Shown: positions 4,705 through 60,120 of the stretch, one piece after another
Layout: each line of letters begins with the position of its first letter
Position numbering within the stretch: position 1 is the first letter of the stretch
NCBI GenBank assembly: GCA_964344965.1
Contig: CAYFPJ010000006.1
Coordinates: 568 to 64,567, forward strand
DNA: 64,000 nucleotides
Direction of reading: 5' to 3'
Origin: an uncultured Gammaproteobacteria bacterium
GTDB taxonomy: Bacteria; Patescibacteriota; Patescibacteriia; Magasanikbacterales; UBA922
Translations under genes and position numbers: made by a program
Notes under the pieces: generated by a model
Told to the model about the DNA's origin: nothing
Seen by the model: only the letters and a program-made list of their open reading frames with translations
Database searches by the model: none

Positions 4705-6099
4705 TTAGACAGAACTTACTTCCTGCCCATCATCCCGATCCTTCACAACAAAACCAAGTCCACTAATCTCCTCCCGCAATCTATCACTTTCCTCCCAGTT
4801 TTTCTCATCCCGAGCTAACTGTCGAGCATCAAGCAGTTTTTGCACTTCTTCTGGAATTTCCACATTTTTTCGATTTGGATCATGAAGTTTCAATCCCAAG
4901 ACCTTATCAAACTCAATCACCATCTCGAGATCAAGCTGGTGATTTTTTAGTCCCTTCCAGAGGGTAGCTAGAGCTTCTGGCATATTGAGATCATCATTGA
5001 TAGCTGTGACAAATTGCTCGCGGACATAAGGATCACGAGCAGCATGGTCTGGGATATTGGCAACCAAATTGCGCAAGTTTTTCAAGCCACTAGCCGCAGC
5101 CTCGAGAGCTTCCCAAGAGAAGTTTAGCTGTTTGCGATAGTGGGTTTGCAAGAGGAAATAACGATAGGATAGGGGAGATACCTTTTTTTCTTTGAGCGTA
5201 TTCATGGTAATGAAATTTCCTTTTGATTTTCCCATTCTGGCTTCATCAATAACCAAAAACTCGCCATGCAGCCAAAAATTAACCCAAGGTTTAACACCAC
5301 TTGAGCTTTCAGCTTGAGCAACTTCATTGGTATGATGAACTGGAATATGATCTATCCCGCCACAGTGAATATCGAATTGATCTCCAAGATACTTCATACT
5401 CATGGCCGAACACTCGATGTGCCAACCAGGAAATCCTTTGAATCCGAAGGCTTCCCATTCCATCTGACGAACAGATCCTTCGCTTTGCTCAGGACTCGCA
5501 CCCTTCGGGACGCTTCGCTTCCACAAAGCAAAATCATGAGGATTTTTCTTTTCTCCCATATCCACTCTTTCGCCAGCTTTCAATTCTTGATTTTGGAGAT
5601 TGGCTAGCTTACCGTAGTCATCTAGCTTGGTGGTGTCGAAGTATATCCCGTCTGAAGTCTCATAAGTAAATCCTCTGTCAATCAAGGTTTGCACTTGGGC
5701 GATTTGTTCCTCAATATGATCGGTGGCCTTGCACCAAGTGTGAGGCTCTAGTAGGTTGAGCGCCTGCATATCATCTTTGAATGCTTGGGTGTAGAATTCT
5801 GCAATCTCCCAAGCCGTCTTACCTTCACGCTTTGATCCTTTTTCCATTTTATCCTCACCTTGGTCAGCATCATCAGTCAAGTGTCCAACGTCAGTTATGT
5901 TCATGACATGGTTGACCTCAAAACCATTGTATTTCAAAACACGACGCAGGATATCCTCGAAAACATAAGTACGAAGATTACCGATGTGAGCGTAGTTGTA
6001 GACAGTGGGGCCGCAGGTGTAGAGACCTACTTTTTTGTCTACCAATGGCTTGAATTCTTCCTTTTTTCGAGTGCGAGTGTTGTAGAGTGATAGAGTCAT
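4705..6099 (-). CDS. cysS: cysteine--tRNA ligase
   Basis: 464 aa with class I HIGH motif ([17 protein letters not shown]) and KMSKS-type RMGKSKGN. Full-length similarity to CysRS. Confidence 0.92.
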
Positions 6100-6165: not shown

Positions 6166-6286
6166 CATAGTCCGAGCAACCCATCCTTGACCCTTCCCTT
6201 AAAAAGGGAAGGGAACTTTCTCAGGACATTTCTCCCCTTTTTAAGGGGAGGTGCCCGTAGGGCGGAGGGGTTGCTCGGACTATGTT
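6166..6286. repeat. GC-rich three-way palindromic element in the cysS / DUF559 divergent intergenic region
   Basis: 17-bp perfect outer stem CATAGTCCGAGCAACCC (6166-6182) pairs with GGGTTGCTCGGACTATG (6270-6286). It encloses two similar hairpins, CCCTTCCC-TTAAAAA-GGGAAGGG and CTCCCCTT-TTTA-AGGGGAG. The structure is symmetric, so it can form on either strand. Confidence 0.6.
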
Positions 6287-6312
6287 TCAAGAAATGATAT
6301 ATTAAAGCATGT

Positions 6313-10412: not shown

Positions 10413-11984
10413 TTAGAGTGTTCTATTAAACACTCTATACAAAACAGGAAGCACATGTTCAAAGACCCCAATCGGTTTCAAAATAATACTAAATGTTAAA
10501 ACTAGGTAAAATATCCCTAGGACGTGATAGAGAGCTGGAGAAGTGAAAGTCATCACCATAAGAGAGATAAGTCCAGCTAGTAAACCAACATAAAAATCAT
10601 GATAGTCTGATAAAGACTGTATTTTTTTATTTAATTCATAAATTATAAAAAATATTACAGTCAAGAACATAGTCAGACCAAAGAACCCTAGCTCGACAAG
10701 CATCTCAAGATAGCCCCATTCAAATTGAGTAGTATTGATTTGCTCATAAGTAATAGGACTAAAAAAATCAATCTCACTACCAAGTCCGCTACCTAGAATA
10801 GGGCGATCTTGGATCATGATAAAAATTGGTTCAAGTAAGGCACTACGTGTGTAGGTGCTAACTTCCATCTGAGGACTGGCAATGCTTAAAAAACGAAAAC
10901 CAAACATCCCAAGTCCTAAAGATTTTCCAAGACTTGAAATAAAGGAGATGCTCATCAGTAATACAAAAAATATAGCAAAAGCATTGACAGTAACTTTGAT
11001 CCAACGTTTCCAAGAATGTTTGTATTTTAGCACTAGAAAACCAATGGCAAGAGCTAGGAAATAGGTCCGCGAAAGATTGAGGACTAAAATTAAAACACCC
11101 AAAAATAGCAGCATTCTCCAAGCTTTGTGATGCCTCTCATCACGCATGAGAAGAGAGGAGATAAATAGAATAGCAGGAATTACCAAGAGATGTTCGGGAG
11201 TGACAATGCGGAAAAATCCCTGTTGCATGTCAGTAATCTTACCCATGGCCACGTCTCTGAACCATTGGTAAAAGCTGTCATGGATTTCTCCTAGGCCACT
11301 AGAATACAGAAGGAAGGTAAAAACAGAAAAGAAAGCTCCTCCAAGTAAGAAAACAATCATCAAACGTACTAAGTATTCTTGAGTTTTTGGCTCTTGAAAA
11401 TGATGATAAAAGGGGAGTAGTAGAAGAAAATATGAAAATGGTAAGAGATCTCCAATAATATTATTAATATTATTTCCGTATACCAGACCGAGAATAGCAG
11501 CAAAGATTACAAAACCGGCAAGAGGAAAAAACATGTAAAATATCTTGTGCTTAATATGAAAGCGATGTTTTAGTTCTTCGAAACTAAGATGCTGTACTAC
11601 CCAAAGAAAGAGAAAGGTAAAGACCAATACTGTACGCATCGATAGCCCAAAAAATTCTAAGAAATGTCCAGCTCCGCCTAAGAACAATTCCGCAAGTAAG
11701 ATAAAAAAAGCATACTCAATTTTTTTGAAATAAAGCATGGCAAAGACCATCATCAAGATGAAAAGTAGAATGGCCTGGATGATATTGTGTCCCGCAAGAG
11801 CAAAGGATAAGATCCTGGCACCGACAAAGCAAACAAAGAGCCAGATAGTTTGCTTGTTTAGGAAGATTGATTTTGTAGTGAGGAAATTATACATGGAGCA
11901 TGGAACAAATTTATTGATGATCAGTACGTCATCCCGAGCGCAGTCGAGGGATCTCATGATAGCGACGAGATCTCTCCACTCCAC
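10413..11984 (-). CDS. O-antigen ligase / Wzy_C-domain polytopic membrane protein (TfpO/PilO-like candidate). The annotated GTG start lies inside a MITE copy; the probable true start is the ATG at 11892-11894.
   Basis: More than 10 predicted TM helices plus a Wzy_C-like core (...LLFLGVLILVLNLSRTYFLALAIGF...). The first 30 codons (MEWRDLVAIMRSLDCARDD...) are encoded by repeat element 11926-12020. Confidence 0.55.
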   Translation of the reverse strand: MEWRDLVAIMRSLDCARDDVLIINKFVPCSMYNFLTTKSIFLNKQTIWLFVCFVGARILSFALAGHNIIQAILLFILMMVFAMLYFKKIEYAFFILLAELFLGGAGHFLEFFGLSMRTVLVFTFLFLWVVQHLSFEELKHRFHIKHKIFYMFFPLAGFVIFAAILGLVYGNNINNIIGDLLPFSYFLLLLPFYHHFQEPKTQEYLVRLMIVFLLGGAFFSVFTFLLYSSGLGEIHDSFYQWFRDVAMGKITDMQQGFFRIVTPEHLLVIPAILFISSLLMRDERHHKAWRMLLFLGVLILVLNLSRTYFLALAIGFLVLKYKHSWKRWIKVTVNAFAIFFVLLMSISFISSLGKSLGLGMFGFRFLSIASPQMEVSTYTRSALLEPIFIMIQDRPILGSGLGSEIDFFSPITYEQINTTQFEWGYLEMLVELGFFGLTMFLTVIFFIIYELNKKIQSLSDYHDFYVGLLAGLISLMVMTFTSPALYHVLGIFYLVLTFSIILKPIGVFEHVLPVLYRVFNRTL

Positions 11985-12020
11985 CTCTTACTTCGTAGAG
12001 GCTCTGGTCGAGATGACGTA
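11926..12020. repeat. MITE-like palindromic element, copy 1 (family ACGTCATCTCGACC...GGAGTGGAGAGATCTCG...GGGATGACGTA)
   Basis: GC-rich 95-bp element. Its termini are inverted (TACGTCATC...GATGACGTA), and it has an internal IR GAGATCTCTCCACTCC. The related copies are at 20190-20290 and 39467-39591. Confidence 0.8.
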
Positions 12021-12029
12021 TTGATAGAT

Positions 12030-12938
12030 TTACAACATTTTACCAAATCCATTCACAAAAGTTTTACTATCCATTGCTTTTTTTCCTTCCAATTGCAATT
12101 CATGAATTTCGATTGAATTGTCACTAGTTCCTACGTATAGTTTATCACTATCTACTACCACTTTGCCAGGTGAAAAACTTTTTTCAGCAGGAGAAATTTT
12201 GAGCAGTTTTAATCTTTTGTCATTCCAGGTTGTCCAGACTCCTGGCCAAGGTGTCATGCCCCGATATTGATTGTATATTTCTTGGGCAGTATTCTGCCAG
12301 TTTACTTCGCCATCTTCTCGAGAAAGTTTGGAACAGAGGGTAACTTGAGATTCATCTTGTGGTATTGGCTTTAGACTACCTTCGATATAGCCAAGGATGG
12401 TCTCCATAAGGGCTTGTAGTCCCACGTCAGCAAGTTTTTTGTCGAGATCGAGGTAAGTGTCATCCGGAGCAATATAAATCTCTTTTTGGAGCAATATTGG
12501 TCCAGAGTCCATACCTTTGTCCATCAGCATGATGCTTACTCCAGTTTTCTCTTCTCCATTGATGAGAGCCGACTGAATAGGTGAGGCACCACGATACTTT
12601 GGCAGAAGTGACGTGTGAACATTTATGGTTCCATATTTTGGAATGTCCAATATGCTTTTGGGTATAAGCAAACCATATTGTGCTACGATGGCTAAGTCAT
12701 AAGTCTTCAATCTTAAGTCTTCAATCTTAAGTCTTTCAGGTTGTTGTACTGGTATATTATGCTGCTCTGCTAAGATTTTTGTAGGTGGAGAAATAAGTTC
12801 TTTTTTTCTTCCTGCTGGACGATCTGGCTGGGTGATGACTAGCTGAATATCAAAAAGGGGGCTGTCTATCAGTCCTTGGAGGATGGTGGCGGCGAAGTCA
12901 TGCGTGCCGAAGAATACTGTTGAAATTTTTTTATCCAT
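12030..12938 (-). CDS. fmt: methionyl-tRNA formyltransferase
   Basis: 302 aa. It has the N-terminal formyltransferase fold (VFFGTHDFAATILQGL...) and a Fmt C-terminal domain. The gene contains a 14-bp tandem duplication (AAGATTGAAGACTT x2) at about 12706-12733. Confidence 0.85.
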   Translation of the reverse strand: MDKKISTVFFGTHDFAATILQGLIDSPLFDIQLVITQPDRPAGRKKELISPPTKILAEQHNIPVQQPERLKIEDLRLKTYDLAIVAQYGLLIPKSILDIPKYGTINVHTSLLPKYRGASPIQSALINGEEKTGVSIMLMDKGMDSGPILLQKEIYIAPDDTYLDLDKKLADVGLQALMETILGYIEGSLKPIPQDESQVTLCSKLSREDGEVNWQNTAQEIYNQYRGMTPWPGVWTTWNDKRLKLLKISPAEKSFSPGKVVVDSDKLYVGTSDNSIEIHELQLEGKKAMDSKTFVNGFGKML

Positions 12939-12942
12939 TTTA

Positions 12943-13084
12943 ATCTTTAAGCGGTTTTATTCCTCGATGCTTGCATCGAAAAAGTGAAAACTAACATTGG
13001 TTGAAATAAGATTTTCTGCCAATACCCCGCAGCTTGCTGCGGGGATGGCCCGATGAAGTCTTACTTAAACCAAATTTACTTTTA
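12943..13084. repeat. 142-bp element, left copy; perfectly identical in inverted orientation to 41728-41869
   Basis: Exact reverse-complement match over 142 bp. It contains the hairpin CCCCGCAGC-TTG-CTGCGGGG and lies between the stop of gene 13082..14083 and the start of fmt. Confidence 0.9.
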
Positions 13085-14083
13085 TTTTTTTGTAATTTTA
13101 TAACGAACTCCATCACGAATACTCTCTAGGAGTAGTTGAGCTTCTTTTTGGGTGATTTGAGATTTCTTTCTACCATTAGCTATGGCTTGAAGTGCTTTAT
13201 TGACACTATTGTAGTCTATGTGTGTTCCTTTGGGTAATTTTTTCAATAACTCTGTCTTTGAAAAGATGTTGTCAAAAAAAATTTGGATTCCATATTTTTC
13301 TTCTAATTTTTCTGCATTTTGCCACATATATACAGCAGTATTTTTGTACAATGATGCTATGTATAATTCTCCACTACTTAGTAACTTTCTTACCAAAGCA
13401 TCAAATATTTGATTGAATTCTGTTTTTTCATCATCTTCATTTATTTGATCGTACATGCTGGCATAATACAGCTCGCCATAAGTATCTAGTATCACATCAA
13501 ATTCCTGAAAATCCCTTAACTCAAGAATACTCTCTCTGATTTTGTCTACTTTTTTTTGCTTTCCTTTTCCCAATAATTTTTTTATAAGAGTTTCTCTATC
13601 TTTGCTGTAGGGTATTTCTTTCTTTTTTATATGATGGTCTGGAAGTGCTGCATGACTCCTGGTTACAGCTTGTCGTGTTTTTTCTACAATTTCTTCTCTG
13701 GTAAATTTAAGATTTGACAAACTTGTTCCAATTATTTTCACATCATCACCTAGCGCTTCTCTCACTTGCTCGTTATACAATCCCAGCCCAGCACCATTAT
13801 TCAATACTTTTAATTTTCTTTTTTCTCCTGCGGCACGCAACTTCTCTACTTTTTTTGGAAATACATCTCCTATGAATTCAACTCCATGAGAAGAGTTTAT
13901 GGTACCATTGTTAATTTCTATCAAATCATTGAATTTTCCTTCAAGTCTGGTTTGCATTAAAGTGGAATCTTCCAAATGTTTTTTTGCTCCTATTTTTTTT
14001 ACTTTGAGCACTCCAAATTCTGGGTCTTCTGGATCCAAAAATTTTTTTCCTCTATCTCTTATTTTCATATTTTTTATAAACAA
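13082..14083 (-). CDS. hypothetical protein with a possible Rossmann/SAM-MTase-like glycine motif
   Basis: 333 aa. KVLNNGAGLGLY...DVKIIGTS resembles methyltransferase motif I/II. The C-terminal half is helical and of unknown function. Confidence 0.35.
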   Translation of the reverse strand: MFIKNMKIRDRGKKFLDPEDPEFGVLKVKKIGAKKHLEDSTLMQTRLEGKFNDLIEINNGTINSSHGVEFIGDVFPKKVEKLRAAGEKRKLKVLNNGAGLGLYNEQVREALGDDVKIIGTSLSNLKFTREEIVEKTRQAVTRSHAALPDHHIKKKEIPYSKDRETLIKKLLGKGKQKKVDKIRESILELRDFQEFDVILDTYGELYYASMYDQINEDDEKTEFNQIFDALVRKLLSSGELYIASLYKNTAVYMWQNAEKLEEKYGIQIFFDNIFSKTELLKKLPKGTHIDYNSVNKALQAIANGRKKSQITQKEAQLLLESIRDGVRYKITKK

Positions 14084-19726: not shown

Positions 19727-19802
19727 AAGGATTAGAGTTCTCGGCGAAAGTCCAATAAGTGCCCACCCAGCTTTCGCCTGGAATCCTTTTTTGTATTATG
19801 AT
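19727..19802. repeat. Dispersed hairpin repeat, family GGATT...CGGCGAAAG...CTTTCGCC..GGAATCC-Tn (copy B)
   Basis: AAGGATTAGAGTTCTCGGCGAAAG...CAGCTTTCGCCTGGAATCCTTTTTT. It is closely related to 23636-23695. Confidence 0.6.
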
Positions 19803-19891: not shown

Positions 19892-20638
19892 ATGGAAAAA
19901 GGAATACTTTACATAGTAGCCACACCGATTGGCAATCTTGGTGATATTACAATGCGGGCTCTAGAAATTTTGAAGTCTGTAGATATTATCTTGTGTGAAG
20001 ACACTAGAGTCACTAAGAAATTACTTAGCCATTTCGAGATAAGCACACCAACCATGAGCTATCATCAGCATAGTGATGAGGGGAAAGTCGATAAGATTGA
20101 GGAATTATTGCTAGATGGAAAAAATTTGGCTTTGGTGACAGATGCTGGTACGCCAGGGATTAGTGATCCGGGGAATAGGCTTGTCCAACACGTCATCTCG
20201 ACCGATCCCGGCAGTCAGTCGGGAGAGTGGAGAGATCTCGATAAATCACGAGATTCCTCGACTTCGCTGCGCTCCGCCCGGAATGACGTAAAAATTATTC
20301 CAATCCCTGGACCTTCGGCAGTGGTCGCAGCTTTGAGTGTCTCTGGTTTTCCTACTGACAAGTTTGTCTTCATGGGATTTCCCCCGCACAAGAAGGGGAG
20401 AGAGAAGTTTTTTCAAGAAATGGCAGGTGTGAAGTACACAGTTGCTTTTTATGAGTCGTGTCATCGGATCAAGAAATGTTTGAGGCAATTGGCAGAAGTT
20501 TTGGGTGAAGATAGGCAAGTTTGTATTTGTAGAGAATTAACGAAGAAGTTTGAAACGATTTACAGAGGAACTATTGGCGAAATTATGGAGATGGATATTA
20601 AAGAAAAGGGGGAGTTTGTGGTTCTGGTGTCCAGGTAA
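19892..20638 (+). CDS. rsmI: 16S rRNA (cytidine1402-2'-O)-methyltransferase RsmI, carrying an in-frame insertion of roughly 30 aa encoded by a MITE copy
   Basis: ILYIVATPIGNLGDIT...EDTR...DAGTPGISDPG...IPIPGPSA tetrapyrrole-methylase-fold motifs. The segment VISTDPGSQSGEWRDLDKSRDSSTSLRSARNDV (20190-20290) is absent from typical RsmI and equals the repeat family found at 11926 and 39467. Confidence 0.85.
   Translation: MEKGILYIVATPIGNLGDITMRALEILKSVDIILCEDTRVTKKLLSHFEISTPTMSYHQHSDEGKVDKIEELLLDGKNLALVTDAGTPGISDPGNRLVQHVISTDPGSQSGEWRDLDKSRDSSTSLRSARNDVKIIPIPGPSAVVAALSVSGFPTDKFVFMGFPPHKKGREKFFQEMAGVKYTVAFYESCHRIKKCLRQLAEVLGEDRQVCICRELTKKFETIYRGTIGEIMEMDIKEKGEFVVLVSR
20190..20290. repeat. MITE-like palindromic element, copy 2, inside the rsmI reading frame
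   Basis: ACGTCATCTCGACCG...GGGAGAGTGGAGAGATCTCG...CCCGGAATGACGTA. It is GC-rich relative to the gene. Confidence 0.8.
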
Positions 20639-22123: not shown

Positions 22124-23635
22124 ATGAAAAAAACATTCTACATAACAACCACACTGCCATATGTAAATGCAGATCCACATATTGGTTTTGCATTAGAAAT
22201 TATCCAGGCTGATGCCATTGCCAGATATCACACCCTTCTCGGTGAAGAGGTTGTGTTCAATACAGGTACAGATGAGCATGGCCTCAAAATTTATCGTAAG
22301 GCAGAAGAGAGGGGGATCACACCACAAGCATATTGTGACGAGTATGCAGCTAAGTTTGATGCTCTCAAGGATGCCCTAAATTTGAGCTATACCAAGTTTG
22401 TCCGCACTACTGATAAGCATCATGTCGTGGCTGCTCAAGAATTTTGGAAACTGTGTGATGCTAGTGGGGATATTTACAAGAAAAATTATAAAATAAAATA
22501 CTGTGTGGGCTGCGAACTTGAAAAAACTGATTCAGAACTGGTAGACGACAAATGTCCAATTCATCCAACATATGAATTGGAGCAAATTGACGAAGAAAAT
22601 TATTTCTTTAGATTTTCTGCTTACCAAGATAAGCTCCTGGAGCTTTACAAAAGAGAGGATTTCATTATTCCAAAAAATCGATCCACAGAGATAGCCAATT
22701 TTGTCAAAAATGGTCTGCAGGATTTCAGTATTTCGAGACTGAAAGAAAAAATGCCTTGGGGTGTGTCAGTACCAGGGGATGATGAGCATGTGATGTACGT
22801 TTGGTTCGATGCTCTTGTGAATTATATATCCACTATTGGCTGGCCAGACAACAAACAAGAATTTGAGAAAAATTGGCCTGGAGTGCAGGTGGCAGGTAAA
22901 GATAATTTGCGTCAACAAAGTGCCATGTGGCAAGCTATGCTGCTTTCTGCTGGGCTTGATCCATCAAGGCAGATTTTCATCCACGGTTTCATCAGCTCTG
23001 AGGGGCAAAAAATGAGCAAAAGTATTGGAAATGTCGTGGCACCCTATGAAGTGGTAGAAAAGTATGGTACTGATGCTGTTAGGTTTTATTTACTGGGAGC
23101 TTTACCTAGTTATGATGACGGAGATTGGTCCAAGAAAAGATTTGAAGAATTTTATACAGCCCATCTTGCCAATGGAGTGGGGAATTTGACAAGTCGGATA
23201 CTGACGATGTTGGAGAAGTATTGTAATGGTGTGGTGTCAGAGATGAACAAGACAGCAGACAACAGGCAACAGACAGCAGATTTTTGGGGGCAGTATACTG
23301 AAGCATTGACAAAGTATAATTTTGAAGAGTCGGTCAGTCTTGTTAATGGATTAGTTGGGCAATTGGATGGAGTTATTTCAGAACAAAAACCATGGGAAAA
23401 GGCAAAAGCTGGTGAAGATATTTCTGGACTACTATATCAGCTTGCCGAAGGGTTGCGTCACCTTGGCTTAGCTTTATTGCCAATAATTCCAGAAACAGCT
23501 GAGAAAATTTTGTATAGCTTGGGAATTGATGTAGATAATTTGGAAGATTTGGAAGTGGAGAAAGAGTGGGGGAGGCTGGAGCCGGGAACAAAGATTAAAA
23601 AAGGTGATATGTTGTTTCCGAGATTAGAGGCATAA
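22124..23635 (+). CDS. metG: methionine--tRNA ligase
   Basis: Core MetRS motifs P-Y-V-N-A-D-P-H-I-G, KMSKS (KMSKSIGN) and the anticodon-binding domain. There is no C-terminal tRNA-binding extension. Confidence 0.92.
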   Translation: MKKTFYITTTLPYVNADPHIGFALEIIQADAIARYHTLLGEEVVFNTGTDEHGLKIYRKAEERGITPQAYCDEYAAKFDALKDALNLSYTKFVRTTDKHHVVAAQEFWKLCDASGDIYKKNYKIKYCVGCELEKTDSELVDDKCPIHPTYELEQIDEENYFFRFSAYQDKLLELYKREDFIIPKNRSTEIANFVKNGLQDFSISRLKEKMPWGVSVPGDDEHVMYVWFDALVNYISTIGWPDNKQEFEKNWPGVQVAGKDNLRQQSAMWQAMLLSAGLDPSRQIFIHGFISSEGQKMSKSIGNVVAPYEVVEKYGTDAVRFYLLGALPSYDDGDWSKKRFEEFYTAHLANGVGNLTSRILTMLEKYCNGVVSEMNKTADNRQQTADFWGQYTEALTKYNFEESVSLVNGLVGQLDGVISEQKPWEKAKAGEDISGLLYQLAEGLRHLGLALLPIIPETAEKILYSLGIDVDNLEDLEVEKEWGRLEPGTKIKKGDMLFPRLEA

Positions 23636-23695
23636 AAGGATTCCCGGCGAAAGCCGGGTTAGTGCTCACCCGGCTTTCGCCGGGAATCCTTTTTC
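23636..23695 (+). terminator. Hairpin repeat family B/C acting as the metG terminator
   Basis: GGATTCCCGGCGAAAGCCGGG...CCCGGCTTTCGCCGGGAATCC is a perfect roughly 20-bp IR, followed by TTTTTC. Confidence 0.8.
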
Positions 23696-37483: not shown

Positions 37484-37504
37484 GTCTCCGAAATTACATC
37501 AATA

Positions 37505-37541
37505 CCTCGTCCCGTACCGAGGTACGAGGTCGGGATTAAAA
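37505..37541. repeat. Dispersed hairpin repeat, family TCGTCCCG...TCGGGATTAAA (copy D)
   Basis: CCTCGTCCCGTACCGAGGTACGAGGTCGGGATTAAAA. Its reverse-complement relative is at 49237-49270. Confidence 0.6.
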
Positions 37542-39466: not shown

Positions 39467-39591
39467 ACGTCATCTCGACCGAAAGTCTGATGAAATACAG
39501 ACTGGAGTGGAGAGATCTAGTTGTTTTAAATAAAAACCATGAGATCTCTCCACTTCGTCCCTCCTTCGTCAGGACTGCGGTCGAGATGACA
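39467..39591. repeat. MITE-like palindromic element, copy 3 (intergenic, 125 bp, near-perfect palindrome)
   Basis: ACGTCATCTCGACCG...GGAGTGGAGAGATCT...AGATCTCTCCACT...CGGTCGAGATGAC. It has 13-bp TIRs plus an internal 15-bp IR. Confidence 0.85.
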
Positions 39592-39684: not shown

Positions 39685-40830
39685 ATGAATAAACAAATGG
39701 GGATAATTGTGGGAGTTTTTGTGGCGATAGCACTTCTTCTGGTGGCAATTTTTTTCTTTTTTTCAACCAGAACACAAGATAATGATAGTTTACCAGAAGA
39801 TCTAAGTCAAGAGTTCATTCATGACAAACTAGCTCCCAATGATCCTACTATAGAAGAGATTGAAAAGGAGTTGGAAAAATTAAAAGAATTAACTCCAGAA
39901 GAGCTCGGAACAACCTCTGGAGTTTTTGAAGAAGAAATAATTTTATTAGAACAGCCTCAAGATATTATGATTACTGATGGTACTAAACACAGTGTACCAT
40001 TAGAAGAAATTTTGGCAGGGGGTCCAGTCAAAGATGGTATACCTCCGATTGACAATCCCAAATTTATTTCTGTAGAAGATGCTGAAAATTTTTTGAATGA
40101 TGATGAGCCTGGGATAGCAATTTCATTTGATGGAGTAGATAGATTTTATCCTTTTCAGATTCTAGTCTGGCATGAAATAGTCAATGATACTTTACCGGAT
40201 GGTCGACGAATTTTGGTGACATATTGTCCACTCTGTTTTTCAGGAATTGTCTTTGACCCAGTTGTACAGAATGAGAGAGTAGAGTTTGGCACTTCTGGCA
40301 AACTGTGGAACTCCAATCTGGTGATGTATGATCGTAAGACTGATTCGTATTGGTCTCAAGTACTTGGAGAGGCGATAGTGGGTGAAGAAACTGGCGTGAA
40401 ATTGGAAGTACTTTCTTCTGACCAGGTCAAATTTGGCAATTGGAAAAAACAATTTCCCAGCGGAGAAGTACTCTCTAAAAAAACTGGCAAGCTTAGAGCC
40501 TATGGCGTAGATCCATATGGGGATTATTACATCTCTCCGGGAGTTTATTTTCCACTTACCAACAAAGATAATCGTCTTGGTGAAAAAGATTTGATCCTTG
40601 GTCTTGTCGAGGGAGGAGAATCCCTGGCTGTTCATGTGGAGGCTGTAAAAAAAGCAGGTTCTATGGAGACCACTTTTGCTGACAAAAAAATCTTAGCAAA
40701 ATTTGATCCCAATCTAGAAGTTGTAAAGATATATGAAAAATTGGATGATAAGTTAATTGAAGTAAACCCTTTCACAAGTTTTTGGTTTGCTTGGGTGGCA
40801 GTTCATCCTGATACTGAGTTGATGCGATGA
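39685..40830 (+). CDS. DUF3179 family secreted/membrane-anchored protein
   Basis: N-terminal TM anchor, KDGIPPIDNPKF and VTYCPLCFSG signatures. Confidence 0.65.
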   Translation: MNKQMGIIVGVFVAIALLLVAIFFFFSTRTQDNDSLPEDLSQEFIHDKLAPNDPTIEEIEKELEKLKELTPEELGTTSGVFEEEIILLEQPQDIMITDGTKHSVPLEEILAGGPVKDGIPPIDNPKFISVEDAENFLNDDEPGIAISFDGVDRFYPFQILVWHEIVNDTLPDGRRILVTYCPLCFSGIVFDPVVQNERVEFGTSGKLWNSNLVMYDRKTDSYWSQVLGEAIVGEETGVKLEVLSSDQVKFGNWKKQFPSGEVLSKKTGKLRAYGVDPYGDYYISPGVYFPLTNKDNRLGEKDLILGLVEGGESLAVHVEAVKKAGSMETTFADKKILAKFDPNLEVVKIYEKLDDKLIEVNPFTSFWFAWVAVHPDTELMR

Positions 40831-41514: not shown

Positions 41515-41730
41515 TTTTTTATGTCTAAAATAAATTTTGCCTCTATAAAGATAAATTTTTTGGTAGTTGGTTTGGCTATTGTAGCCGTCTGCATGCCATC
41601 TGCCGCCCAGGCAGCTGATATTGTGGTTGGTGGTGATTGTACTCTGGTGGATGCCGTTTATGCGGCCAACCAGGATCAGGCAGTGGGTGAATGTAGTGCT
41701 GGAGAAGTTGGAGAGGACACTATTCAATAA
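41503..41730 (+). pseudogene. N-terminal fragment (signal peptide plus CSLREA-like domain) of a Pmp-type beta-helix surface-protein gene, terminated by the inserted 142-bp element
   Basis: MSKINFASIKINFLVVGLAIVAVCMPSAAQA signal peptide, then ADIVVGGDCTLVDAVYAANQDQAVGECSAGEVGEDTIQ. The stop TAA is the first triplet of the repeat. Confidence 0.6.
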
Positions 41731-41869
41731 AAGTAAATTTGGTTTAAGTAAGACTTCATCGGGCCATCCCCGCAGCAAGCTGCGGGGTATTGGCAGAAAA
41801 TCTTATTTCAACCAATGTTAGTTTTCACTTTTTCGATGCAAGCATCGAGGAATAAAACCGCTTAAAGAT
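41728..41869. repeat. 142-bp element, right copy (exact inverted duplicate of 12943-13084), inserted in the Pmp-like gene
   Basis: Perfect identity to the reverse complement of 12943-13084. Deleting exactly these 142 bp joins ...DTIQ to LTEDVVLTEVANF... in frame. Confidence 0.9.
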
Positions 41870-41881
41870 TTAACTGAAGAT

Positions 41882-46335: not shown

Positions 46336-46368
46336 CACAGATTACAGGGATTTTATTGGATTACACAG
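46335..46368. repeat. Left inverted repeat of the GxxExxY cassette, copy 1
   Basis: ACACAGATTACAGGGATTTTATTGGATTACACAG is the reverse complement of 46771-46799 with 28/29 identity. Confidence 0.75.
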
Positions 46369-46380
46369 AAAAAAAACAAT

Positions 46381-46773
46381 ATGCTAAAGGAGGTAGATTT
46401 AACAAGAGAAATAATTGGGATAGCAATGAAAGTACACGGAGAACTTGGTCCTGGATTTAAAGAAGTGATCTATCATCAAGCCATGTTGTCCGATTTGATT
46501 GAGAATGATTTTGATGTAGAAACAGAAGTGGAATTTGATGTAATTTACAAAAATAAAATAATTGGTATATTTAGAATTGATCTATTGGTAAATAAAAAAG
46601 TATTAATAGAGCTAAAGGCAATAAGCGGTGAGATACCTAAAATATTTAAATCACAAGTTGTCTCTTATTTGAAAGCAAGTAATTTGGAAGTTGGTCTACT
46701 GCTTAATTTTGGAAACCCAAGTCTTGAAATAAAACGATTTGGAAACTACAAAGACTATAAAAGATCAGTGTAA
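46381..46773 (+). CDS. GxxExxY family protein, copy 1
   Basis: 130 aa with GIAMKVHGELGPGFKEVIYHQA (G-x-x-E-x-x-Y) and ...IDLLVNKKVLIELKA. It is 126/130 identical to the copy at 59671..60063. Confidence 0.8.
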   Translation: MLKEVDLTREIIGIAMKVHGELGPGFKEVIYHQAMLSDLIENDFDVETEVEFDVIYKNKIIGIFRIDLLVNKKVLIELKAISGEIPKIFKSQVVSYLKASNLEVGLLLNFGNPSLEIKRFGNYKDYKRSV

Positions 46774-46799
46774 TCCAATAAAATCCTTGTAATCTGTGT
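46771..46799. repeat. Right inverted repeat of the GxxExxY cassette, copy 1; it abuts the ATG of the next gene
   Basis: TAATCCAATAAAATCCTTGTAATCTGTGT. Confidence 0.75.
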
Positions 46800-49204: not shown

Positions 49205-49236
49205 TTCAAGGTTCATAAATTTTTAAAAAAATAGTT

Positions 49237-49336
49237 TAATCCCTACCTCGTTCCTCGGTACGGGACGAGGGGTTGGTTTAATTCCCCGAGGCTCGCCTCG
49301 AAAAAAAGGTTCCAGGGCTTGCCCTGGGGTTCATAA
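49237..49336. repeat. Hairpin repeat copy E (reverse-complement orientation of family TCGTCCCG...TCGGGATTAAA) plus two further GC hairpins, acting as the serS terminator region
   Basis: TAATCCCTACCTCGTTCCTCGGTACGGGACGAGG is the reverse complement of the 37505-37541 type. It is followed by GAGGCTCGCCTC-GAAAAAAA and CCAGGGCTTGCCCTGG. Confidence 0.6.
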
Positions 49337-55256: not shown

Positions 55257-55585
55257 AGTGGAGGAAGGAGATAACAAAAGAACCTTACTTAATATAGTAT
55301 AAAGCGTCGCACAATGTATCTTATACGACATATTATACTTAGTGTGTTTATCTTAAGCACTTTCCACCTTTCAAATACTTTTTATTATTAAGCCTATTCC
55401 TACAGTTAGAAAGTTTTTTAATTCTTTCACTCGTTTAGTGTGTGTTTAGTCACATTAACTGGTACCTGCTGCTGAAGACCACATCTTCTTTATACTTAGC
55501 TTCGCCCCCCTATTCTTTCATTTTACGACACTACAGAATAACGTTTCAAAATTAGGAGGTATAGAGTATCGTCTTTTTGACTCTC

Positions 55586-55680
55586 TCATCCTGAGCGCAG
55601 CGAAGGATCTTTAGTAAGGAAAATATTCTCCAAAGGAAAATATTCTCCATAAGAAATATCCTTCGCTGCGCTCAGGATGA
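55586..55680. other. Large perfect stem-loop (22-23 bp stem, 49-nt loop with internal direct repeats) inside a 570-bp ORF-free region
   Basis: CATCCTGAGCGCAGCGAAGGAT (55587-55608) pairs with ATCCTTCGCTGCGCTCAGGATG (55658-55679). The loop carries GGAAAATATTCTCCA twice. Confidence 0.7.
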
Positions 55681-55828
55681 CATTATTAAAATATAAATAA
55701 AAAATCCAGAATTTTAAAAAATCACTGGACAATTTTTTGTCTAACCTATTTATCTATATCAAATTGAAAGACTTCTCCCCTTCCCCATTCACTCTCCCCT
55801 GCTAAATATATTGTGCGACACATCACAA

Positions 55829-59644: not shown

Positions 59645-59676
59645 ACACAGATTACAAGGATTTTATTGGATTACAC
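59645..59676. repeat. Downstream inverted repeat of the GxxExxY cassette, copy 2
   Basis: ACACAGATTACAAGGATTTTATTGGATTACAC is identical to the reverse complement of the copy-1 right flank 46771-46799. Confidence 0.75.
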
Positions 59677-60063
59677 TGATCTTTTATAGTCTTTATAATT
59701 TCCAAATCGTTTTATTTCAAGACTTGGGTTTCCAAAATTTAACAGTAGTCCGACTTCCAGATTGCTTGCTTTTAAGTAAGAGACTACTTGTGATTTAAAT
59801 ATTTTAGGCATTTCACCACTTATTGCTTTCAACTCTATTAATACTTTCTTATTTACCAATAAATCAATTCTAAATAAACCTATTATTTTGTTTTTGTAAA
59901 TTACATCAAATTCTACCTCTGTTTCTACATCTAAATCATCCTCAATCAAATCGGACAACATGGCTTGATGATAGATCACTTCTTTAAATCCAGGACCAAG
60001 TTCTCCGTGTATTTTCATTGCTATCCCAATTATTTCTCTTGTTAAATCTACCTCCTTTAGCAC
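59671..60063 (-). CDS. GxxExxY family protein, copy 2 (GTG start)
   Basis: 126/130 aa identical to 46381..46773. It sits in the opposite orientation with related flanks. Confidence 0.8.
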   Translation of the reverse strand: MLKEVDLTREIIGIAMKIHGELGPGFKEVIYHQAMLSDLIEDDLDVETEVEFDVIYKNKIIGLFRIDLLVNKKVLIELKAISGEMPKIFKSQVVSYLKASNLEVGLLLNFGNPSLEIKRFGNYKDYKRSV

Positions 60064-60120
60064 ACAAAATTTATTTTCTGTGTAATCTTTTAAAAATCCT
60101 TTAATCTGTGTAAGACTACA
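60064..60120. repeat. Upstream flank of GxxExxY cassette copy 2 (degenerate relative of the copy-1 left IR)
   Basis: The reverse complement contains ACACAGATTAAAGGATTTTTAAAAGATTACACAGAAAATAA, against ACACAGATTACAGGGATTTTATTGGATTACACAGAAAAAAA in copy 1. Confidence 0.55.

Follow-up and report, generated by a model that had tools for sequence, protein, structure and literature searches.

Short palindromic repeats carried in frame by bacterial genes are already known, both as Rickettsia palindromic elements (RPEs; PMC10969869) and as intragenic repetitive extragenic palindromic sequences (REPs; PMC3733652). Within the latter, the CGTC-tagged superfamily defined by Di Nocera, De Gregorio and Rocco (2013, BMC Genomics 14:522; PMC3733652) is recognised by a terminal CGTC, often TGTC (variants TGTC and CCTC), by a stem – normally of 8–9 bp – whose first two pairs are A-T, by a loop of 4–5 nt, and by a short unpaired tail, usually CCA. 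CGTC REPs are mostly arranged as inverted dimers, are mainly intergenic and high in copy number, and are without a dedicated transposase; in several species intragenic, in-frame copies encode 20–30 amino acids, and RPE-4 and RPE-6 of R. conorii, as well as dRS3 of Neisseria, are members of the superfamily (PMC3733652). Here we describe a GC-rich palindromic segment within rsmI, the gene for the 16S rRNA C1402 2'-O-methyltransferase, in a 64-kb stretch of DNA from Candidatus Magasanikbacteria, a member of the candidate phyla radiation (CPR), an assignment that follows the names given to its RsmI homologues; this whole stretch is referred to as the window. The segment is very probably a copy of a dispersed, non-autonomous inverted dimer of the CGTC-REP type that became fixed in frame in rsmI and is tolerated there. 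The original prediction of a repeated GC-rich palindrome that keeps the rsmI frame and is accommodated in a loop holds as an overall reading; new are the host, which belongs to the CPR, the modular unit and, most of all, the finding that many repeat families have recurrently occupied one site.

The identity and limits of the host gene were borne out. The protein encoded by open reading frame (ORF) 19892–20638 scores 229.7 bits against TIGR00096, the NCBIfam equivalog for RsmI (cut-off 167.9), and matches the RsmI structures 5hw4, 9pzg and 3kwp (E ~1e-53 to 1e-48). These structural alignments break in two (query 4–99 with E. coli 2–97; query 132–246 with E. coli 103–222), leaving about 27 residues of the protein without counterpart. 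An extra segment had been placed between the conserved LV and IPIPGP blocks, and it is found there: 37 residues separate LV (97–98) from IPIPGP (136 onwards), against 12 in alleles of native length (hereafter empty, as opposed to filled, alleles). All columns that are invariant across 70 aligned homologues, the window protein included, lie outside the insert, and the ORF is intact. Six contigs from three sequencing runs encode the identical protein, the assemblies that carry it being independent and drawn from ENA, Logan and NCBI. RsmI had also been called essential, which is not so in E. coli, where a delta-rsmI strain is in use (PMC13037946): there the enzyme is conserved yet dispensable. 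The window RsmI and all CPR homologues (~220–226 amino acids without the insert) stop near E. coli residue 230 and are without the C-terminal three-helix domain, which in E. coli is essential for C1402 methylation (PMC13037946).

The element is flanked by rsmI sequence ...GTCCAACAC on the left and GTAAAAATT on the right. As claimed, it is GC-rich (58%, against 41% for the remainder of rsmI and 37.5% for the window) and in frame, with 32 stop-free codons at 20192–20287; of its six possible reading frames just two are open, among them that of rsmI. The inverted termini that had been described are likewise present, with perfect inversion limited to 7 nt (ACGTCAT/ATGACGT) in the rsmI copy. Folded as RNA the element reaches -41.9 kcal/mol (z=-3.4; none of 200 shuffles was equally good) and folded as DNA z=-2.6, the predicted shape being a long imperfect hairpin. 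Trypsin would be predicted to release LVQHVISTDPGSQSGEWR from the insert; DLDKSR... likewise lies in the insert.

The same backbone recurs elsewhere in the window. The pattern CGTCATCTCGACC-N12-40-GTGGAGAGATCT has three matches, at 20191, 11968–12018 (minus strand) and 39468–39518 (plus strand), and none in 100 dinucleotide-preserving shuffles. The two further copies that had been predicted (copies B and C) therefore exist, and both are intergenic, but what they have in common with the rsmI copy is blocks rather than near-identity: the alignment of the three consists of conserved blocks (14, ~17 and ~14 nt) around variable interiors, with the backbone CGTCATCTCGACC, a variable part, GGAGTGGAGAGATCTCG, a spacer, CGAGAT(T/C)CCTCGAC, a second variable part and GG(A/G)ATGACGT. 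The copies are modular relatives rather than near-identical copies of a transposon. A scan for tag plus stem resolves all four elements of the window – three intergenic dimers and the one in rsmI – as inverted dimers of hairpin units with the tags outermost. The left unit of the rsmI copy reads CGTC-ATCTC-(GACC + inner hairpin CCCGGCAGTCAGTCGGG + AGAGTGGA)-GAGAT-CTC, and the three left units of the window have three different inner hairpin stems at the identical position. The right-unit stem is ATTCC/GGAAT in rsmI and ATCCC/GGGAT in copy B (CGTC-ATCCC-GAGCGCAGTCGA-GGGAT-CTC), a compensatory change that keeps the pairing. The fourth dimer (55583–55682) has units similar to the right unit of copy B; their likeness to the right unit in rsmI is looser. 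Coordinates are given in the table.

These matches bear on the view that the segment is a lineage-specific expansion of a loop, an assembly artefact or part of a decaying pseudogene, apart from mobile DNA, to which we give next to no credence. The site is indeed variable in length among CPR RsmI proteins: with an empty-site query, 9 of the 93 representatives (clustered at 50% identity) with recognisable motifs carry 24–73 residues instead of 15–18, some of them without an obvious palindrome. The view is already contradicted by blocks of 14–17 nt that are identical to the two intergenic copies; against it stand also a unit that occurs exactly in many other genomes, recovery of the same protein from independent ENA, Logan and NCBI assemblies, and the intact ORF with its conserved residues.

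Features of the window discussed in the text, with positions counted from its first nucleotide
Feature	Position	Strand	Description
rsmI coding sequence (16S rRNA C1402 2'-O-methyltransferase)	19892..20638	+	248 aa; element inside
Whole palindromic element, tag to tag (ACGTCAT...ATGACGT)	20190..20289	+	100 nt; 58% GC; folding z in text
In-frame part (GTCAT...ATGAC)	20192..20287	+	96 nt = 32 codons, VISTDPGSQSGEWRDLDKSRDSSTSLRSARND; stop-free
Left unit	20191..20239	+	tag CGTC; closing stem ATCTC...GAGAT; inner hairpin CCCGGC/GTCGGG (variable); CTC tail
AT-rich spacer between units	20240..20249	+	GATAAATCAC
Right unit	20250..20288	-	CGTC-ATTCC-GGGCGGAGCGCAGCGAAGTCGA-GGAAT-CTC
Copy B, intergenic inverted dimer	11926..12019	-	two unit types as in rsmI copy; between fmt (12030-12938) and Wzy_C-type membrane protein
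Copy C, intergenic, two left-type units in an inverted dimer	39467..39591	+	14-nt perfect inverted termini; between peroxiredoxin-like ORF and ORF 39685-40830
Related intergenic dimer	~55583..55682		units TGTC-ATCCT-GAGCGCAGCGA-AGGAT; from inverted-repeat and unit scan

By its sequence features the element fits the description of an inverted dimer of CGTC-tagged, REP-like (RPE-like) units better than that of a classical MITE (a miniature transposable element with inverted repeats). With the CGTC REPs it has in common the outer CGTC/TGTC tag (CGTC at 20191–20194 and, on the minus strand, at 20288–20285; CGTC on both units of copy B, CGTC and TGTC in copy C, TGTC in the dimer at 55.6 kb), the AT-led stem (ATCTC...GAGAT and ATTCC...GGAAT in the rsmI copy) and the inverted dimers; of the four dimers in these 64 kb, three are intergenic. 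Canonical members of the superfamily moreover occur at the same rsmI site: an example is the allele of locus L131 (GTCATCCCCGCGCAGGCGGGGATCCAG...GATTCCCGCTTTCGCGGGAATGAC), whose insert has the canonical stem, ATCCCCGCG, with a loop of 3–4 nt. The window units depart from this norm in that a stem of 5 bp stands around 12–36 nt (22–36 nt in the rsmI copy), sometimes including a second, variable hairpin. All of them end in CTC; the consensus tail is CCA, and CCA(G) is the tail of the L006 and L131 inserts. The host, too, belongs to a group outside the survey of PMC3733652, and the left unit is found exactly in at least six phyla, whereas REPs are usually species-specific.

The RPEs (Ogata et al. 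2000, Science 290:347; 2002, Genome Res 12:808), as far as they are summarised in PMC10969869, offer a second likeness: palindromic selfish DNA in frame in housekeeping genes of a small AT-rich genome, thought to be translated, at places compatible with the protein fold. The rsmI element agrees in its 32 in-frame codons, the intact ORF of 248 amino acids and the retained conserved residues of RsmI. It differs in size and organisation, classical RPE-1 being ~150 bp with a conserved peptide whereas here 100 bp are modular, and in that many families occupy one site of one protein across lineages, with loss of native codons. The link to RPE-4 and RPE-6 is drawn solely from the common CGTC-REP architecture (PMC3733652).

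Classical MITEs (Correia, ERIC, Nezha, the Coxiella QMITE; PMC10969869, PMC5896051) resemble the element in being small, in having terminal inverted repeats (of 7 nt in rsmI and of 14 nt in copy C), in being non-coding by themselves and present in several copies, and in that in-frame fusions are possible. They are built from terminal inverted repeats that flank a core, whereas here tagged hairpins form a dimer. The MITE label proposed originally was therefore abandoned: no target-site duplication accompanies the element, the copies are similar in blocks and not near-identical, and no parent insertion sequence (IS) with matching ends was found in the window or beside rsmI in L004. An intein or self-splicing intron was also considered and rejected; the insert has 32 residues, is without Cys/Ser...His-Asn boundaries and gave no ribozyme match in Rfam. 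No Rfam family matched at the gathering threshold anywhere in the window, and around the element (20100–20400) there was nothing at E<=1, with noise alone at E 1.7 or worse.

Two syntenic relatives with the gene order Memo, penicillin-binding protein (PBP), rsmI were recovered: L004/L005 (GCA_002793015.1), in which the site is empty, and L010, which carries a related element. It is the empty relative that is nearer to the window, with 68% identity in the PBP (55% for filled L010) and 76% in Memo. In the codon alignment L004 reads GNRLVES-IAISQDP-IKIIPIPG and the window GNRLVQH-[32 aa]-VKIIPIPG; according to the alignments to L004 and L010, seven native codons (IAISQDP in L004) are lacking in the window and the net gain is 25 amino acids. 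As read from the aligned codons, the event appears as a replacement of seven native codons and not as a pure insertion. Of the mobile in-frame insertion first proposed, the origin from a repeat stands, while the pure insertion does not. Relatives lack the segment or have other palindromic repeats in its place, contrary to the lineage-specific loop that the original prediction had named as its alternative. As for a near-identical strain with an empty site, the look-up of exact proteins returned identical filled alleles only, and a scan of JGI metagenomes returned nothing closer than 71%.

Structure modelling supports the predicted loop placement. In an AlphaFold model built from a 70-sequence alignment (mean pLDDT, the per-residue confidence of the model, 82), a helix at 94–102 (GNRLVQHVI) is followed by a coil at 103–133 and a strand at 134–138 (KIIPI); the extra residues make up this coil, in which pLDDT is 48–66 and falls below 50 at 114–128. 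A Foldseek search with the model again placed RsmI structures on top (3kwp, 5hw4, 9pzg). The insert, as modelled, would be a low-confidence surface loop compatible with the fold. In the model the helix is prolonged by the first two codons of the element (Val-Ile), and the last two (Asn-Asp) stand just before the strand; in native alleles these positions hold a hydrophobic residue and a turn of acidic or amide type, respectively.

A sequence of events consistent with these data can be proposed. A copy of the repeat, presumably mobilised from tag to tag as a unit by an enzyme acting in trans, would have been fixed in rsmI where the helix after the DPG motif of the S-adenosylmethionine (SAM) loop has its C-terminal end, in place of seven native codons. 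It would have survived because the 96 nt gained and the 21 nt lost are both multiples of three, because only two of its frames are open and rsmI uses one of them, and because Val-Ile is able to prolong the helix and Asn-Asp to form the turn ahead of the following strand. The other ~28 residues, rich in Ser, Asp and Arg, would protrude from the N-terminal domain as a disordered loop on the surface. The enzyme most likely still works, and the element is most likely translated; the insert is presumably neutral, and in all likelihood it is selfish DNA that is tolerated and not an adaptation.

Palindromes in coding regions need not be translated. GC-rich palindromes have invaded coding regions of AT-rich genomes in the form of the GC clusters and byp elements of yeast mitochondria; byp elements (from Magnusiomyces mitochondria) are GC-rich and are bypassed in translation, and bypassing is also known from T4 gene 60. 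Programmed bypass, or removal from the RNA, would yield a mature RsmI without the insert, and the very stable local hairpin, together with the precedent of one mitochondrial system, might be held to favour this. We nevertheless consider it extremely improbable. The 45 filled alleles among the homologues and the 13 found by tblastn, the latter independent of gene calling, are without exception in frame and stop-free, with inserts in multiples of three; filled alleles with a broken frame, which would suggest bypass, were absent from the 45 and the 13 alike. Two of six frames are open and the element uses one of them, Rfam gave no intron or ribozyme match, and 32 residues is far below the size of an intein. 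That every rsmI allele is in frame and stop-free argues for ordinary translation, unlike the mitochondrial GC clusters, byp elements and T4 gene 60, which are out of frame and bypassed, or mitochondrial.

The insert in the window is one of many at the same position. Among the 120 best RsmI homologues, 45 (38%) have at least six extra residues at this site, and just one internal insertion was found elsewhere in the protein; the site is empty in most of these 120 and in 42 of 80 JGI metagenome rsmI loci. The inserts come from at least five CGTC-type families plus some unrelated palindromes. The families encode VILSEARRAKS...LRSAQDD (DNA GTCATCCTGAGCG...CGCTCAGGATGAC); VIA(R/S)S...PRND and VIASVAKQSP...PRND (DNA GTCATTGCGAG...CTCGCAATGAC); VIPAKAGIQ...DSRFRGND (DNA GTCATTCCCGCG...); VVIP(S/T)...RNDI; and, in the window, VIS(T/S)DP...RNDV. 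Palindromes without CGTC tags occupy the site in the JGI loci L154 (CCCCTCTTTTTAAGGAGGGG type), L164 and L172 (CCTCCCCTCAGATGAGGGGAGG type) and L208-210. Taken at the level of sequence, the rsmI site is a recurrent hot spot across lineages.

How the site came to be filled so often can be approached by comparing alleles. In a neighbour-joining tree with the inserts masked (210 columns, weak deep resolution) filled and empty alleles are interspersed. The canonical native sequence of the empty partner allows three pairs to be polarised: the window and L004, L006 and L007 (82% DNA identity), and L008 and L009 (79%, with 20 kb of synteny). The three filled alleles belong to three different families, and their inserts begin 5–6 codons after DPG and end 3–4 before PxPG, with 7–8 native codons gone. 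Later left boundaries, with more or all of the native residues kept, are found in P0044, P0053/P0106, P0081, L143, L154, L164 and L173. The sister alleles L131 and L132 (83% DNA identity) have both junctions in common (left CAGTCT/RTCATT, right AATGAC/A, the slash marking the junction) and different repeat families, and L131 has kept a relic ATCATT tip ahead of its new dimer, which argues for turnover at an occupied site. The 42 empty alleles yielded no conserved DNA target, the replaced stretch being just AT-rich. Divergence beside the insert is raised in only ~3 codons per side, so that no long imported tract is visible; an imported recombination tract around the insert was for the same reason rejected.

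Four accounts of the site are candidates: replacement in one step; insertion followed by convergent deletional trimming until Val-Ile and Asn-Asp of the element serve structurally; exchange of cassettes at an occupied site; and short-patch recombination by which filled alleles would have spread. In L006/L007, L008/L009, L131/L132 and window/L004 the CGTC-type inserts always stand in place of the same 7–8 native codons, and sister alleles have common junctions with different repeat families, which hints at turnover, or at cassettes being exchanged, where the site was already filled.

A different history, which we regard as unlikely, would be a single ancient insertion (with a deletion of ~8 codons) early in this CPR group, the resident palindrome being overwritten repeatedly thereafter by nested insertion and deletion, by tag-to-tag cassette exchange or by gene conversion; some filled alleles would then have moved between lineages by recombination, and the window copy would not be a fresh, independent insertion. 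The common junctions of L131 and L132 with their different families, and the relic tip of L131, are in keeping with this history, as are a clade of 12 members that is wholly filled in the insert-masked tree, with families and boundaries differing inside it, the same junction codons and 7–8 missing codons across families a, b, d, e and g, and P0058, which looks like an internally deleted relic (VILSVSRRAQDD). It is opposed by the interspersion of filled and empty alleles down to close pairs (L006/L007, L008/L009) and by the window being nearer to empty L004 than to filled L010. Nor could deletion regenerate the canonical native sequence of the empty alleles; raised divergence extends over just ~3 codons per side, and P0044, P0053/P0106 and L173 have different junctions with all native residues kept.

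More speculatively, and with doubt on our part, the helix-to-strand junction after DPG may be a landing pad at which dimers and unrelated GC-rich palindromes are exchanged as tag-to-tag cassettes that replace a fixed, AT-rich segment of 7–8 codons; the alternative is random insertion filtered by selection. If the landing pad were real, it would imply a mechanism of mobilisation or repair for these 'orphan' CGTC REPs, either capture at a fragile or single-stranded AT-rich site or exchange site for site. Natural pairs of filled and empty alleles would then make the movement of CGTC REPs and RPEs directly testable, and the exact recurrence of a 38-nt unit in no fewer than six phyla would suggest an enzyme of wide occurrence.

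Several observations weigh against the reading of the segment as a mobile, tolerated REP-type dimer. The copies are not near-identical, and recent transposition is thus unsupported. No target-site duplication is seen at any of the three copies (flanks CA and TA in rsmI, TA and TA at copy B, AA and TT at copy C). In L004 an IS200-like Y1 transposase gene (10824–11279) lies directly downstream of the empty rsmI allele; with its product as tblastn query no Y1 transposase was found in the window, and the end hairpins of the L004 element, CCCTG(T/C)GATGTCCCGCAGGACTC(A/G)CAGGG (CCCTGYGATGTCCCGCAGGACTCRCAGGG), are unrelated to the CGTC repeats. Single window units fold no better than shuffles (z -0.8 to +1.1), and among 103 distinct units of other genomes only those with longer interiors do so. 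In at least three separately polarised pairs 7–8 native codons are lost from one and the same place, which is more than a simple insertion can account for. Finally, in the E. coli RsmI–30S structure Y103 and H104 touch A790 of 16S rRNA helix 24a (h24a; PMC13037946); they correspond to N95 and R96 of the window protein at the helix start, the insert begins 5–6 residues later, and because the helix start contacts h24a in E. coli a functional effect of the insert is possible. Two candidates were discarded. The L004 IS200-like element was rejected as mobiliser or parent IS, its end hairpins (CCCTGYGATGTCCCGCAGGACTCRCAGGG) being unrelated and no such transposase turning up in the window by tblastn, and thermodynamic support for hairpins of single units was dropped, since only the whole dimer and units with long interiors beat shuffles.

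Another view is that the insert is adaptive, the loop or the mRNA/DNA hairpin having been recruited, for example, for an extra contact with the 30S subunit or for regulation of rsmI. We hold this to be highly improbable, more so than a single ancient insertion. It can appeal to the closeness of the insert to the positions that contact A790 of h24a (PMC13037946), to the absence from CPR RsmI (~222 amino acids) of a C-terminal domain essential in E. coli (PMC13037946), to the retention of an insert in 38% of the nearest homologues, and to the predicted RNA hairpin of -41.9 kcal/mol. It fits poorly with inserts that are unrelated in sequence, length (~10 to 45 extra amino acids) and family, palindromes without CGTC among them. 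Most relatives, which likewise lack the C-terminal domain, have no insert; the peptide is merely what the DNA palindrome dictates. The net charge of the insert is about -1, so that the loop is not RNA-binding in character, and model confidence in it is low.

Beyond rsmI, the left unit was found with all 25 specified bases exact in at least 120 stretches (L011-L130) from at least six phyla; the matches listed include Pedobacter (many; Bacteroidota), Acidobacteriaceae, Reyranella, Eggerthellaceae, Parvimonas, Thermomicrobiales and Patescibacteria. The usual form among them is a minimal unit of 38 nt, CGTCATCTCGACC-N13-GTGGAGAGATCT, often as an inverted dimer, and none of the 131 listed matches in genomes below 50% GC lies within a long ORF. 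Such identity across phyla is unusual for REPs. Our search of the literature returned nothing relevant on REPs in Patescibacteria, on RsmI with palindromic insertions, or on the repeat sequences themselves.

In-frame repeats are not confined to rsmI. In addition to its four dimers the window holds a relic within cysS (4705–6099), a half-unit at 5473–5496 on the minus strand (DNA AGTCCTGAGCAAAGCGAAGGATCT), where the encoded CysRS has ~9 extra residues relative to PDB 3sp1. In appearance it is one unit, now decayed, of the TGTC-ATCCT-GAGCGCAGCGA-AGGAT repeat, and would be a second, older in-frame repeat in the window. In L009 a TatD_DNase gene (~13377) has a 15-residue in-frame insert (YSLISSLSESEGEKS), encoded by a REP-like unit (CATTTCGAGCCTGAGCGAAAGCGAAGGGGAGAAATC), that is not in the L008 orthologue. 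In-frame REP-like inserts number ~1–3 per 12–22 orthologue pairs in these CPR genomes.

In-frame palindromic selfish DNA, known so far mostly from Rickettsia and a few other bacteria, is thereby extended to the CPR and to a conserved ribosome-modification enzyme. The dozens of natural filled and empty alleles, with different families at one site, provide material on the mobilisation of CGTC REPs; they are informative, too, on how proteins absorb random insertions of 20–35 residues and on how often the lineage-specific loops of CPR proteins derive from repeats. In practical terms, gene calls are lengthened or given wrong starts by such repeats, which can also distort marker-gene alignments and the phylogenies built on them.

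The window contains further repeats. GC-rich palindromes of other families lie at 19738–19793 and 23631–23693 and at 37492–37540 and 49235–49283 (for example GGATTCCCGGCGAAAGCCGGG...CCCGGCTTTCGCCGGGAATCC), one of them in the spacer just upstream of rsmI, and a CCCCTTTTTAAGGGGAGG-type palindrome at 6229–6292 resembles the one inside rsmI of L154. An intergenic inverted repeat of 151 nt (12936–13086 and 41726–41876; 99% identity, arms 28.6 kb apart), each arm of which contains the hairpin CCCCGCAGCTTGCTGCGGGG, may represent either a regulatory or small-RNA region that was duplicated or the two ends of a segment that inverts or moves; a second inverted repeat, of 437 nt (46363–46799 and 59645–60081; 92% identity), has internal short repeats of the ACACAGATTACA... 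type.

Intergenic repeats also touch gene starts. The mechanical start of the Wzy_C-type ORF 10413–11984 (minus strand) is a GTG within copy B (MEWRDLVAIMRSLDCARDD...), and the Wzy_C-type gene of relative L005 (1865–3349) has two gene calls that differ by 52 residues (442 vs 494). Over-extended annotated N-termini are probably caused by intergenic repeats; the N-terminal "extensions" of some RsmI homologues (P0045, P0118) look similar to the over-extension at copy B.

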